A stretch of DNA of 64,000 nt from contig CAWKMU010000003.1 in assembly GCA_963850905.1 (NCBI GenBank), positions 1,984,001-2,048,000 on the forward strand, read 5' to 3'. The notes beneath the pieces are model-generated. The model saw only the letters and a program-made list of their open reading frames with translations. It had not been told where the DNA came from and searched no databases. A program made the position numbers and the translations under genes. Within the stretch, counting starts at the first letter, position 1. Each line of letters begins with the position of its first letter. The stretch comes from an uncultured Gemmatimonadales bacterium. Lineage in GTDB: Bacteria > Gemmatimonadota > Gemmatimonadetes > Gemmatimonadales > Gemmatimonadaceae. Shown here piece after piece: positions 19,378 to 22,840 of the stretch.

Positions 19378-20076
19378 ATGGGTATCTCGGTCAAGCAGGT
19401 CGTCGTCCTCGGGCTCGCGGCGCCGCTCATGGCAGCGTGCGTCAAAACCAGCACCTACCACAAGGATCTCGCGCAGACTCGCGCACAGCTGGCGTCGGAG
19501 CAGCAGGCCCGTGCCGCCGCCGACAGTGCGCAGAACGCCGACATCTCGGGCGTGAAGACGGACGTGCAGGGATTGAAGACGGACGTGCAAGGGCTGCACA
19601 ACGATCTGCAGAACCTCCGCACGGAGTTCGGCGCGAAGATCACGGCGCTCGAGTCCGCGATCCAGTTCGATGTACCGGTGAACTTCGCGTTCAATGACGC
19701 GACGGTGCGGGACCAGGATCGCGCCGCACTCGACCGGTTCGCGGGTGTCGTCGAGAAGTACTATCCGAACTCGAAGATCACGATCGAGGGCTTCGCGGAT
19801 CCAGCGGGCACGATGCACTACAATCGTGTGTTGTCGGAACGCCGCGCGACGTCCGTACGCGACTATCTCGTGACCAAGGGTGTCGCCACGAACGACCTCA
19901 AGACGATCGGCTACGGGAAGACGCGGCTCGTCGTTCCCAACGCGTCGCGCGACGATCCGGGCGCGGAGCAGAATCGTCGTGTCACTTTCGTGATCGAGAC
20001 CAGGAGCGACAACGCGGCCACCGCGGGCAACCCGACCGCGAGCGTCACGACGTCGGCCCCGGCGGCTGGGCAATAA
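19378..20076 (+). CDS. OmpA/Pal-family peptidoglycan-binding lipoprotein with coiled-coil linker
   Basis: Lipobox LMAAC, heptads KTDVQGL x2, IEGFAD, YNRVLSERRA, GYGK, NRRV. Confidence 0.88.
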   Translation: MGISVKQVVVLGLAAPLMAACVKTSTYHKDLAQTRAQLASEQQARAAADSAQNADISGVKTDVQGLKTDVQGLHNDLQNLRTEFGAKITALESAIQFDVPVNFAFNDATVRDQDRAALDRFAGVVEKYYPNSKITIEGFADPAGTMHYNRVLSERRATSVRDYLVTKGVATNDLKTIGYGKTRLVVPNASRDDPGAEQNRRVTFVIETRSDNAATAGNPTASVTTSAPAAGQ

Positions 20077-20094
20077 CTCGCCTGCGGCTCGTTA

Positions 20095-20249
20095 TAGAGA
20101 GTAGACGGACAGAAAGTAGAAAGTAGACGAACGACAACAGGGGCGGCCAACCAGGCCGCCCCTGTTCCATTCTGGGACGGGATGCCCCAGGCTGGGTGGC
20201 ACTGAGCACCGCTCGCGTCTACTTTCTACTTTCAGAAGTTCTACTTTCT
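20095..20249. repeat. Inverted AGAAAGT heptamer element enclosing a terminator-like hairpin
   Basis: tagagagtagacggacagaaagtagaaagtagac (from 20095) vs gtctactttctactttcagaagttctactttct (to 20249); internal stem aacaggggcggcc/ggccgcccctgtt (20136-20166). Confidence 0.7.
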
Positions 20250-20270
20250 CGGGCGCCGAAAGGCGCCCGC

Positions 20271-20575
20271 GGGCCGGTAGCTCAACAGGTAGAGCAGCGG
20301 ACTTCGAGAAAAATTGGAGCACCGCGCTGGAAACGGCGCGCGTGAATGCGCTCAACGTCGGCGAACGGTGTGAGATCCCAACGCCGAGCCAAGCCGGGAA
20401 GCCGTGTGCGAATCCCGGAAGGTGTAGAGACTCGACGGGCGCCACCTGACCGCGAGAGGCGCAGGTGAAGACAGAGTCCGGACCACGAACGCGCGGAGCT
20501 CGTTGTCTGCGCGGCGGCGAAAGCCGAAGTGGTGTGTTAATCCGCAGGTCGTGGGTTCGAGTCCCACCCGGCCTA
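20271..20575 (+). tRNA. tRNA-Lys(UUU), intron-containing (exon 1 20271-20304, exon 2 20537-20575; CCA not encoded)
   Basis: Joined exons give a 73-nt cloverleaf: acceptor GGGCCGG/CCGGCCT, discriminator A73, D arm GCTC/GAGC, anticodon stem GCGGA/TCCGC with loop CTT|TTAA, T arm GTGGG-TTCGAGT-CCCAC. Confidence 0.9.
20305..20536 (+). ncRNA. Group I self-splicing intron (IC3-like), 232 nt, no homing endonuclease
   Basis: P ctcaacgtcggcgaac, Q caacgccgagccaagc, R gaaggtgtagagactcgacgg, S gtgaagacagagtcc; P1 CUU/CGA..UUG-GAG with U-G at the splice site; P3 gcgctc/gggcgc, P7 gactc/gagtc, P8 cacctg/caggtg; terminal G. Confidence 0.9.
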
Positions 20576-20607
20576 TGCGCGCTTCGCGCGCATAGGGAAG
20601 AGCGATT

Positions 20608-20746
20608 CAGAAAGGAGAAAGGAGATACCGAGCATAGGCGGCCTGGACGGTGTGTGCGCCACGAGGCCGCGTTCCTCGGTCTCCTTTCTCCTTTCTCCTC
20701 TCGGTCCGTCAGCGTTCTCCCTCTGTCCTTGCTCCTCTCTCCTTTC
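20608..20746. repeat. Inverted AGAAAGG heptamer arrays downstream of the tRNA
   Basis: cagaaaggagaaaggaga (20608-20625) vs tctcctttctcctttctcct (about 20680-20699), with further pyrimidine units to ~20746. Confidence 0.6.
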
Positions 20747-21081
20747 CGCCGGCGCCCGAGCACGCGCTGCGTGCGCTCCCGTTCTCACGCGAATGTGCGG
20801 CAGCGTTCATTGCGGGAGCGCCATTATACGCGGACGTAGCAAACGATGCGCGCCAGGGACAGCGTGTCCGAAAATGTCGGGCGCGCGCGAGAATGTTTGC
20901 AAAATCTCTCTGGCTTTTTTTTCCAGGAGTCGCTACGTTGCGCGCCGTCGGAGCGGCGGGGTGGGCGGCGGTGTGGCGCTGGGCGGTGTGTATGCTCCGA
21001 CGGCAAGGACCGGAGCGGCCTACACTAAGGTGGGCCGTAGAGTGGATCACACCGGCATGATCGCTCGCCCCTCCTGAGGGG

Positions 21082-21180
21082 CTGCGACAAAGGCAAACCC
21101 GGCGAAAGCCGGCGACGCAAAGCTACGAGGCTTCGCCCCGCATCAAAGCCAGCGGGGCATGCCAGTCGAGCCGCCGAACA
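21082..21180 (+). ncRNA. Cyclic di-GMP-I (GEMM) riboswitch
   Basis: aaaGGCAAACCcggcGAAAgccggcGACGCAAAGCtac...gagccGCCGAA matches the GEMM core; ends ~7 nt before the AGGAGG RBS of the next gene. Confidence 0.88.
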
Positions 21181-21196
21181 GACAACAGGAGGTTGA

Positions 21197-22840
21197 ATGT
21201 CGCGGACGATTCGTCGCCCCGCGCGGGTGTGGGCATGCGTGCCCCCGACCTGTGCCGCTGTTGTGGCTTGCCTAGCGGCCGCCTGCTCGGACCCTGCTGG
21301 ACCTCATCTGCAATCGCCCGCGTCGCCGGCCACGACGCCCCGCACCTTCGTAGTCGCCCCCGAAGGCCGCATCGACGCGCCGGGCACCAGCACCGCGCCG
21401 ATCTCCCTCGGCCGCGCGATCGCGATGGCGCCCACCGGCTCGACGATCCAGCTCGCGGCCGGCACGTACTCGACGCCAGGACTCACGATCGATCGGTCGC
21501 TCACGCTGCAGGCGGCGCCAGGCGCGACCGTGCAGCTCGAGGGCAGCACGCTGATCCCCGCCGATCAGTGGGAGCCTGCCGCACACGGATGGCGCACACC
21601 CTGGACGGCTGCCGCCCTCGTGCCGGCCGCCACTCCATCCATGCGAACGTCGGCGCGGGCGGCCGTCTCGCAGCAACGACTGCTCGCCGACGGGCGCGTG
21701 CTCACGCCCGCGAGCTCGGCCGCCGCCGTGGGTGTCACCAGCTTCTACGTCGACACCACCGACAAATGGCTCTACGTCGGACAGGACCCGGCGCTCCACC
21801 CGGTGCAAACCGGATCGGCTGACATCGGCCTGCTCGTGAAGGCGCCGAACGTCACACTCATCGGCGTCAGCGTCCACGCGTTCGCCTCGATCGGACTCAG
21901 AGTCTCCAGTGAACACACCACGATCTCTGGCGGCACCTACTCGTACAACGGCCTCATTGGGCTCGACGTCAACGGGGCGAGCTACCTCACTGTCCAGAAC
22001 GCGAGGATGACCTACAATGGCCAGGTGGGGGTCGAGGCCAGCCACTCGAGCAACATCACCATCCTGGACAATGACATCAGCAACAACAACACCGGCAACT
22101 ATAGCGTCTCGCAGGAAGCTGCCGGGTTGAAGGGCACGAACATCAGCAACATCACGGTGCGCGGAAACTGGGTGGCGGACAACGCCTCGAACGCGATCTG
22201 GTTCGACGAAAACTCGACCGGCGTCGTCGTGGCGGCCAATCAGGTGCTGCGCAACAAGTGCTACGCCATCTATTTCGAGCTGAACACCGGGCCGCTCATC
22301 GTCGGCAACCTGGTCTACGACAACGTTCAAGCCGGCATCGGCGTGCACTTCACGACGTACGCGGGAATCTACAACAACACGTTGGTGAACAACGGCACGA
22401 ATCTCGACGTCAGCGCATCGTACGATCGGTTACCGTACGACACGTACCAGGCGACCATTGTCAACAACATCTTCTGGAACGCGGGGTCGCTCCTGGTCAA
22501 CCTCTATCGCTACAACGGGTGCAACAGCTGGGTGTACAAGCAGGTCGATTACAATGCGTATTATCGTAGCAACGGGAGCTCGCCCAAGTACGTCGTGAAC
22601 TGGTGCAACGCGTGGTATAGCAACGTCTCGGCGTTCCACAGCGGTACCGGCTACGAAGCCCACGGGATCGAGTATGACAATGGGAGTGATCCCTACTTCG
22701 TGAACGCCGCCGCCGGGGATTACCACCTCCGCTCGGGGAGCCCGGCTTATCATCGCGGCGTGGGTCTTCCCAGCGCCGCCGCCGCTGCACTCGGCGTTAC
22801 GCCCGGGGTGACCGTGTCGATGGGCGCGTTGCAGAACTGA
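21197..22840 (+). CDS. Right-handed parallel beta-helix (pectin-lyase fold) lipoprotein
   Basis: Lipobox LAAAC; Asn-rich coil repeats (IWFDEN, IYFELN, IYNNTLVNN, IVNNIF); DP.FVN...DYHL..GSPA; MGALQ end. Confidence 0.8.
   Translation: MSRTIRRPARVWACVPPTCAAVVACLAAACSDPAGPHLQSPASPATTPRTFVVAPEGRIDAPGTSTAPISLGRAIAMAPTGSTIQLAAGTYSTPGLTIDRSLTLQAAPGATVQLEGSTLIPADQWEPAAHGWRTPWTAAALVPAATPSMRTSARAAVSQQRLLADGRVLTPASSAAAVGVTSFYVDTTDKWLYVGQDPALHPVQTGSADIGLLVKAPNVTLIGVSVHAFASIGLRVSSEHTTISGGTYSYNGLIGLDVNGASYLTVQNARMTYNGQVGVEASHSSNITILDNDISNNNTGNYSVSQEAAGLKGTNISNITVRGNWVADNASNAIWFDENSTGVVVAANQVLRNKCYAIYFELNTGPLIVGNLVYDNVQAGIGVHFTTYAGIYNNTLVNNGTNLDVSASYDRLPYDTYQATIVNNIFWNAGSLLVNLYRYNGCNSWVYKQVDYNAYYRSNGSSPKYVVNWCNAWYSNVSAFHSGTGYEAHGIEYDNGSDPYFVNAAAGDYHLRSGSPAYHRGVGLPSAAAAALGVTPGVTVSMGALQN

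Follow-up and report, generated by a model that had tools for sequence, protein, structure and literature searches.

What are the 232 bases that part the two halves of a transfer RNA (tRNA) gene in a stretch of bacterial DNA, and what becomes of the gene that they interrupt? The stretch, hereafter the window, comprises 64,000 nucleotides (64 kb) of an uncultured Gemmatimonadales bacterium (GenBank assembly GCA_963850905.1, contig CAWKMU010000003.1, positions 1,984,001 to 2,048,000), and the halves lie at 20271-20575 on its + strand. Here we analyzed the boundaries, fold, relatives and distribution of the insert. The span is very probably a tRNA-Lys(UUU) gene split between U34 and U35 by a frame-less group I intron of the bacterial tRNA-intron family, and its splicing is proposed by analogy. 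The element is not of a new kind; the finding adds a further host to a well-known intron family, a tRNA less familiar in this role. All coordinates are positions in the window, and the gene and all parts of the intron are on the + strand.

The interrupted gene and its boundaries

Exon 1 (20271-20304, 34 nt) supplies the acceptor 5′ strand, the D arm, the 5′ strand of the anticodon stem and the bases C32, U33 and U34, and it ends in ...GGACUU. The intron (20305-20536, 232 nt) begins with CGAG and its last base is the omega-G, G20536. Exon 2 (20537-20575, 39 nt) begins with UUAAUCC, which contains U35, U36, A37 and A38, and it continues through the 3′ strand of the anticodon stem, the variable loop, the T arm and the acceptor 3′ strand to A73; the CCA end is not encoded. 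When the two exons were joined by script, ARAGORN returned a 73-nt tRNA-Lys(UUU) with a regular cloverleaf, in agreement with the first-pass annotation, which had joined the halves into a cloverleaf of this length with the loop CUU|UUAA. The joined tRNA has a G1-U72 pair and the anticodon loop CUUUUAA, and it contains A73 and U35, which we take from work in E. coli to be lysine identity elements. The intron is without its own reading frame and is too short for a homing-endonuclease gene.

The boundaries are fixed by comparison with alleles of the same genus. The gene was searched with BLAST over 41 genomes (the genome of the window, G000, and 40 relatives), and the full interrupted gene was found in five of them, all of one genus: G000 itself, G004 (98%), G001 (93%), G002 (85%) and G003 (81%). 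In three further genomes of this genus (G007, G008 and G009) the exon matches are contiguous, 91-97% identical, and break exactly at query position 34|267, that is at 20304|20537. These intron-less Lys(UUU) genes read ...GGACUUUUAAUCC... with the loop CUUUUAA, and their upstream neighbour is the one found in the window, a gene for an OmpA-family protein, with an upstream flank about 75% identical. Judged by this shared neighbour, they represent one locus that occurs both with the insert and without it, and the intron-plus and intron-minus alleles that the first-pass annotation had proposed to look for do occur side by side within the genus. An uninterrupted Lys(UUU) gene was called by ARAGORN in 11 of the 14 fetched loci that matched the exons only (L007-L020), and the other three (L009, L019 and L020) hold 3′ fragments; one of the eleven, L013, comes from the unpublished genome G016, and no result depends on it. 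Only the cut CUU|...G|UUAA yields the loop of the intron-less genes, which bears out the proposed Lys(UUU) host and the insertion site 34/35. The U before the intron and the omega-G are retained in five of five Lys alleles and also in five of five alleles of a related intron in tRNA-Gln, which is treated below.

Fold and family membership of the insert

The structure from P1 to P9 was drawn by hand on the intron of the window, and its pairs were counted on a MAFFT alignment of ten introns (five Lys-hosted, five Gln-hosted). P1 (20302-20319) has six pairs, in which the exon bases CUU (20302-20304) and the intron bases CGA (20305-20307) face the internal guide UUGGAG (20314-20319); at the 5′ splice site U34 (20304) and G20317 form a U-G wobble, and the alignment to the Rfam group I model RF00028 puts P1 at this place. 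P1 is only 75-78% paired in the count, a figure that understates it because MAFFT misregisters P1 of the Gln rows. The P2 hairpin (20320-20344) has ten pairs, one bulged base and a GAAA loop (20330-20333); 98% of its cells are paired and five of the ten pairs change on both sides. P3 (20348-20353 with 20437-20442) is 100% paired and has one compensatory pair, GC to CG in G012. P4 (20358-20363 with 20382-20387) encloses P5 (20367-20368 with 20377-20378), and together they correspond to the P and Q elements; both are 100% paired, with one compensatory pair in P5.

The second half of the core is equally regular. P6 (20388-20390 with 20421-20423) is 100% paired, and P6a (20394-20398 with 20414-20418) is 90% paired with two pairs changing on both sides. 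The 5′ strand of P7 (20427-20433), with the bulged A20428 and the R element, meets its 3′ strand (20474-20479, the S element) in a pseudoknot with P3; P7 is 100% paired and shows C-G replaced by G-C in G012. The outer five pairs of P8 (20443-20467), namely 20443-20447 with 20463-20467, are 100% paired and include two two-sided changes (CG in five sequences, GC in five). P9 (20483-20486 with 20529-20532, 100% paired) closes a three-way junction at 20483-20532 with P9a (20490-20496 with 20507-20513, 93% paired, two pairs changing on both sides) and P9b (20515-20518 with 20523-20526, 100% paired), which carries a GAAA loop at 20519-20522. The two GAAA loops presumably stand at L2 and L9, the positions where the Azoarcus ribozyme has tetraloops.

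Over the whole structure (64 pairs, 628 cells) 96.0% of the cells are paired, as against 32.6-39.6% when the partners are slid by one to three columns. Fifteen of the 64 pairs change on both sides, and none of 500 shuffles reaches any of the five measures. Compensatory changes fall in P3, P5, P7 and P8, and the core helices P3-P8 are 100% paired over the ten sequences. The first-pass annotation had stated that P1, P2, P3, P7, P8 and P9 could be paired, with a U34-G wobble and a terminal G, and the same helices are drawn here; the omega-G is kept in all ten introns. The three conserved motifs that it quoted were located at 20380-20395, 20419-20439 and 20467-20479.

The Infernal search that the first-pass annotation had proposed gave an alignment over the full model RF00028 (1-253) to 20295-20495 that sets P1 on the exon CUU. 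It scores 24.9 bits (E 2.8e-4 when 551 bases are searched locally; the gathering cut-off is 50) and matches the conserved stretches GCCAA, AGAGACU and AAGA.A.AGUC. Five control introns in classical hosts scored 63.2 (Bartonella Arg-CCU), 50.0 and 44.9 (Leu-UAA), 33.2 (Burkholderia Leu-UAA) and 23.7 bits (Rhodobacter Arg-CCU). Three of the five are below 50 bits, and a low RF00028 score is therefore usual for the bacterial tRNA-intron family. In the survey of Williams 2020 (bioRxiv 10.1101/2020.01.27.920355) it is noted that no seed sequence of the Rfam family is bacterial, hence a working threshold of 18-20 bits was used there.

A covariance model of our own, R1, was built from the ten introns. 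It scores the intron of the window at 244.5 bits, and along its full length it also recognises the introns that named Alphaproteobacteria, Acidobacteriota and Burkholderia have in Leu(UAA) and Arg(CCU), with scores of about 107-154 bits. The covarying core fold, the full-length if sub-threshold RF00028 match and the homology to these introns support the predicted identity of the insert, a complete group I intron of the bacterial tRNA-intron family, as had been annotated at first pass. Williams 2020 assigns the bacterial tRNA introns of the four classical types to subgroup IC3, and by homology to them the intron of the window is putatively of this subgroup, whose periphery is marked by the lack of P2.1 and P5abc and by a short P9 region.

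Proposed splicing and the supply of tRNA-Lys(UUU)

The proposed course of splicing follows the Azoarcus tRNA-Ile intron. The gene would be transcribed as a single precursor, in which the intron would fold into its P3-P9 core and the 5′ exon end CUU would pair with the guide GAG in P1, leaving U34 in the U-G wobble. An external guanosine would attack after U34; the terminal G20536 would then occupy the guanosine site, and the freed 3′-OH of U34 would attack after G20536. In this way ...GGACUU would be joined to UUAAUCC... and the intron released.

The gene is easily overlooked, as the first-pass annotation expected. ARAGORN with default settings called zero tRNAs in the whole window, and with introns allowed it found the span 20271-20575 with a shifted boundary and named it Asn(gtt) i(33,232). 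Applied to the whole genome, the intron mode gave 38 intron calls, many of them false, and it assigned wrong boundaries or isotypes to true introns. A passage of the tRNAscan-SE 2.0 paper (PMC8450103) places the detection of such introns outside the design of that program. In the assembly (4.49 Mb, six contigs) ARAGORN found 47 tRNA genes, including Lys(CUU) and Asn(GUU), and neither ARAGORN nor BLAST found a second or uninterrupted Lys(UUU) gene in this 82%-complete assembly, in line with the earlier suggestion that the gene may be the only one. A count over 1153 open frames of 500 codons or more gave 2075 AAA and 6795 AAG codons, so that AAA makes up about 23% of the Lys codons; the count is crude, as long open frames serve as a proxy for genes. 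With 2075 AAA codons a tRNA that reads AAA is needed, and because AAA cannot be read by Lys(CUU) and the searches gave no further Lys(UUU) gene, splicing should be required for normal translation.

A search of sequencing runs turned up metagenome runs only, two of which (X19 and X20) are soil metatranscriptomes with a small share of the sampled words; contigs of these two and of two metagenome (DNA) runs were compared with the window. X19 gave one 297-nt contig on 20269-20565, which spans exon 1, the intron and part of exon 2 with 13 differences and no gaps, and X20 gave two contigs (20280-20481 and 20284-20494) that lie on exon 1 and the intron. The RNA contigs cover neither of the flanks at 20035-20175 and 20599-20786, which is no proof of their absence; identical contigs of the DNA run X1 cross both ends of the gene. 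The RNA contigs give a weak hint that close relatives transcribe the unspliced gene. Two joints that skip 72-73 bases, from 20439/20440 to 20513, trace to the shorter introns of other organisms.

Several points weigh against the reading proposed here. At its gathering thresholds Rfam returned nothing at the site. The alignment consists of ten close relatives from one bacterial family, and a structure drawn from one of them favours the unslid register. The minimum-free-energy fold of the intron alone is no stabler than that of shuffles (z = -1.16), in a calculation that does not represent the pseudoknot, and a P10 pairing between exon 2 and the guide was sought by eye with no convincing result. 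The RNA-library contigs could be explained by carry-over of DNA, and no joint from 20304 to 20537 was seen in the contigs of the two metatranscriptome and two metagenome runs, which by their nature cannot show a 73-nt joint. A second Lys(UUU) gene could be unassembled, the assembly being only 82% complete.

These points can be read in more than one way. The lack of a clear P10 and the unremarkable folding energy would suit an intron that has the group I fold and does not splice itself in the cell, either depending on a protein helper or splicing poorly enough to limit or regulate the supply of tRNA-Lys(UUU). The core, however, is complete, conserved and marked by compensatory changes, it has the GAAA loops at 20330-20333 and 20519-20522, and its Azoarcus relative, 205 nt long, is described in a passage of PMC13168695 as self-splicing efficiently in vitro at 37 C; this explanation is thus considered improbable. 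A decaying pseudogene with a dead intron would require AAA to be read by an unassembled or unrecognised tRNA, for which the incomplete assembly leaves room, as does the tendency of unusual tRNA genes to escape tRNA finders. But both exons are intact and differ little from their intron-less orthologues, the U before the intron, the omega-G and the core helices are kept with compensatory changes across five species diverged by up to 19%, and no second copy was found by either program, which makes decay very unlikely. The label given by ARAGORN in intron mode would make the host a tRNA-Asn(GUU) and displace the intron by one or two bases. Such a cut gives an intron that ends in U, or else a C before the 5′ splice site; the loop of the intron-less orthologues is CUUUUAA, the discriminator of the gene is A73, and a separate uninterrupted Asn(GUU) gene with a different body lies at C4:194119-194193; an Asn host is hardly credible. 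A tRNA-Lys(UUU) gene with a group I intron after U34 accordingly remains the reading that is followed below.

Relatives, hosts and probable movement of the intron

The first-pass annotation counted Leu(UAA), fMet, Ile(CAU) and Arg(CCU) as the classic hosts of bacterial tRNA group I introns, a list that is now dated: Williams 2020 counts 5292 tRNA genes that group I introns interrupt and sorts them into 21 host/site types, of which four are classical and 17 new. The words Lys and Gln are absent from the text of Williams 2020, where the list of 17 types is an image table, and no paper describing a bacterial tRNA-Lys(UUU) with a genuine group I intron was found in a literature search that did not cover this table. 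As a possible precedent, the cyanobacterial "group I introns" of tRNA-Arg, -Gly and -Lys(CTT) described in a part of PMC5733544 were rejected, being 22-49 nt long and far too short.

Compared with the bacterial and plastid tRNA-Leu(UAA) intron ("Leu.3Ug" in Williams 2020), the intron of the window shares the site 34/35, the 5′ exon end ...GGACUU, the compact frame-less core and a 26-base core motif pair, and Leu(UAA) introns also occur in the same bacterial family (G104 and G052) and order (G275). The host and the 3′ exon differ, UUAA here and AAAA in tRNA-Leu. The alphaproteobacterial tRNA-Arg(CCU) introns ("Arg.5Ug", 215-252 nt) are the nearest classical-host group in both trees described below, while they are inserted at 36/37, after the anticodon, in another host and another phylum. 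The Azoarcus tRNA-Ile(CAU) intron, the model ribozyme of the class, is likewise small (205 nt, as against 232 here) and interrupts the anticodon loop of its bacterial pre-tRNA, in another host and site; like the intron of the window it has GAAA loops on P2 and P9. The tRNA-Arg(CCU) intron is said to have been first described by Reinhold-Hurek and Shub in 1992, in Agrobacterium.

A closer relative lies in the same genome. The tRNA-Gln(CUG) gene at C3:520739-521033, whose host tRNA has a U1-A72 acceptor stem, is split at 35/36 by a paralogous group I intron of 222 nt (BLAST match C3:520790-520992, 79% identical over 218 bases; about 82% outside P1). The two introns are alike in architecture and differ in site, the P1 and guide of the Gln copy being rebuilt for the exon UCU. 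In the homologue of G012 an A follows the exon CUCU, so that Gln(CUG) split at 35/36 is the sole reading. The Gln intron co-occurs with the Lys intron in four of the five species that carry the latter, and it is also found in other genera (G012 and G113). ARAGORN in intron mode mislabels the Gln(CUG) paralogue as Lys(ctt), and the genome's sole plain Gln(ctg) call (C3:c1716143-1716231), with a length of 89 nt, seems dubious.

Across the bacterial family R1 gave 17 matches, in 13 of 151 sampled genomes and 9 of 77 genera. The hosts were resolved by a script that tries every cut with a U before the intron and a G at its end; it is permissive and yields many spurious alternatives, and the labels of L005, L041 and L110 were set by hand. 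Seven of the matches are in Lys(UUU) at 34/35 (G000, G004, G050, G143, G086, G044 and G165), two in Lys(UUU) at 35/36 (G113 and G149), four in Gln(CUG) at 35/36 (G000, G004, G012 and G113), one in Asn(GUU) at 35/36 (G050) and two in Leu(UAA) at 34/35 (G104 and G052), and one (G152) was left without a host. For the Lys copy of G050 the U/G rule alone would also permit Asn at 33/34. A phylum-wide sample gave matches in 4 of 151 genomes: G000, a Leu(UAA) intron in G275, a partial match in the unpublished G211 and a weak one of 23 bits in G241, the last two being set aside.

More widely, an exact scan for the core motif pair, with one genome per species, found it in at least 119 stretches of many phyla (Alphaproteobacteria, Acidobacteriota, Burkholderia, Patescibacteria and others). 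R1 gave 102 matches in 100 loci, from which 28 rows were dropped (host not assignable, match cut off, or a second match in the locus). The 74 labelled rows, among the matches listed, comprise 36 Leu(UAA) at 34/35, 13 Arg(CCU) at 36/37, ten Lys(UUU) at 34/35, six Gln, three Lys(UUU) at 35/36, two Thr(GGU) and one each of Asn, Lys(CUU), Arg(UCU) and an odd Gemmatimonadales copy, L079. This L079 (uncultured Gemmatimonadales metagenome-assembled genome (MAG), CAWJVX010000009.1) is the best outside match to R1 among the matches listed, at 194 bits, which is consistent with the Gemmatimonadota genome that the first-pass annotation thought probable. Its exon 2 is a normal one of tRNA-Gln, its upstream sequence forms no 5′ half of a tRNA-Gln, and it may be a rearranged or broken copy. 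A partial 35-bit match, L096, lies on a contig binned as an archaeon (Methanosarcinaceae MAG) that may be mis-binned.

Two trees were built with the P1 columns excluded, a quick one of 74 rows and a careful one of 38. In both, the Lys, Gln and Asn introns of the bacterial family and two Vulcanimicrobiota Leu introns form a clade (98*; 98/98*). This clade, of 22 rows and including the intron of the window, adjoins or falls among the alphaproteobacterial Arg(CCU) introns, and the two Vulcanimicrobiota sequences are its only Leu introns; the main Leu(UAA) clade is separate (99*; 100/99*) and includes the Leu introns of the family itself. The first-pass annotation had supposed that a Leu-type intron moved into tRNA-Lys by way of the shared CUU exon. 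The trees do not favour such an origin, as they place the intron with Gln, Asn and Lys introns and near those of Arg(CCU). The branching inside the Lys/Gln/Asn clade differs between the quick and the careful tree. In the quick tree the Lys(CUU) 35/36 intron of a Pyrinomonadaceae MAG (L066) and the Lys(UUU) 35/36 intron of Sphingomonas cremea (L050) pair on long branches (96*).

In approximately unbiased (AU) tests, one clade of all Lys-hosted introns was rejected (p=0.0066), so that the other Lys introns, that of S. cremea among them, are not one lineage with that of the window; the 34/35 Lys introns alone were also rejected as a clade (p=0.0025). One clade of the Lys and Gln introns of the genus was not rejected (p=0.21), nor was one of its five Lys introns (p=0.24). 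The Lys group was set by host before the trees were made, and the genus group was picked after the quick tree had been inspected. The rejection of a single Lys-hosted clade implies either that hosts were switched more than once or that paralogues recombine.

The Lys intron of G002 is compatible with both. Of 20 diagnostic columns it agrees with the Gln introns at 11 and with the Lys introns at four, and its identity is 87.7% to the Gln intron that shares its genome, 83.7-84.2% to the Lys introns of G000, G004 and G001 and 80.3% to that of G003. It forms a mosaic, Lys-like at the 5′ diagnostic columns 32, 35 and 64 and Gln-like from column 89 on, which points to either gene conversion between paralogues or a retained ancestral state, and which suggests that recombination between paralogues may also occur.

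Within the bacterial family the lineage has very probably passed among the anticodon loops of Lys(UUU), Gln(CUG) and Asn(GUU). It is possible, though we hold it only tentatively, that this endonuclease-free lineage is actively mobile among anticodon loops within the bacterial family, by reverse splicing and subsequent retuning of the guide. The lineage occupies two sites in Lys(UUU) and also Gln(CUG) and Asn(GUU). Copies in the same host are not each other's nearest relatives, some species of the genus have the intron at a locus where others lack it, and the guide GGG of the Gln copy could wobble-pair with the CUU of tRNA-Lys; the lineage is therefore a candidate for ectopic transposition by reverse splicing.

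Some further observations concern the surroundings of the gene. Isolated 3′ fragments of tRNA-Lys(UUU), which start in the anticodon stem, were seen at L009/L165 and L164 (G006), L019 (G038) and L020 (G020). They resemble the attachment-site scars of integrative elements, and none was seen in the five intron-bearing genomes, in numbers that are too small to build on. The idea that the intron shields the gene from integrative elements was found to be unsupported; the two frames that neighbour the G006 fragments are without integrase (one TPR, one of no family). In the window itself, direct CTACTTTCT-type repeats lie upstream of the tRNA gene (20219-20268), with a GC hairpin with a GAAA loop at 20251-20268. 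A hairpin at 20574-20594 overlaps the last bases of the tRNA, and a purine/pyrimidine inverted repeat of about 90 bases follows at 20608-20697 and attracts spurious matches to microRNA models. Farther downstream, a c-di-GMP-I-GGC riboswitch (21083-21179, + strand; 62 bits against a cut-off of 59) lies directly 5′ of the gene for a 547-aa right-handed beta-helix/NosD-like protein (21197-22840), and aptamers that resemble it are abundant in the two soil metatranscriptome runs.

For the organism, the finding means that a gene whose splicing would be needed for normal translation of AAA is missed or mislabelled by tRNA finders, so that the genome would seem to be without a tRNA for AAA, and tRNA-based estimates of completeness and of codon capacity for this soil lineage would be wrong. 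The intron joins the small, GC-rich candidate ribozymes of Azoarcus type, and it reveals no new mechanism. For the family, related introns in at least four tRNA hosts, together with presence and absence within one genus, form a compact natural data set that bears on how group I introns without an endonuclease move between sites and how their guides are retuned. If the proposed mobility is true, it would be a natural case of ectopic group I transposition, a process much proposed and seldom documented in bacteria.

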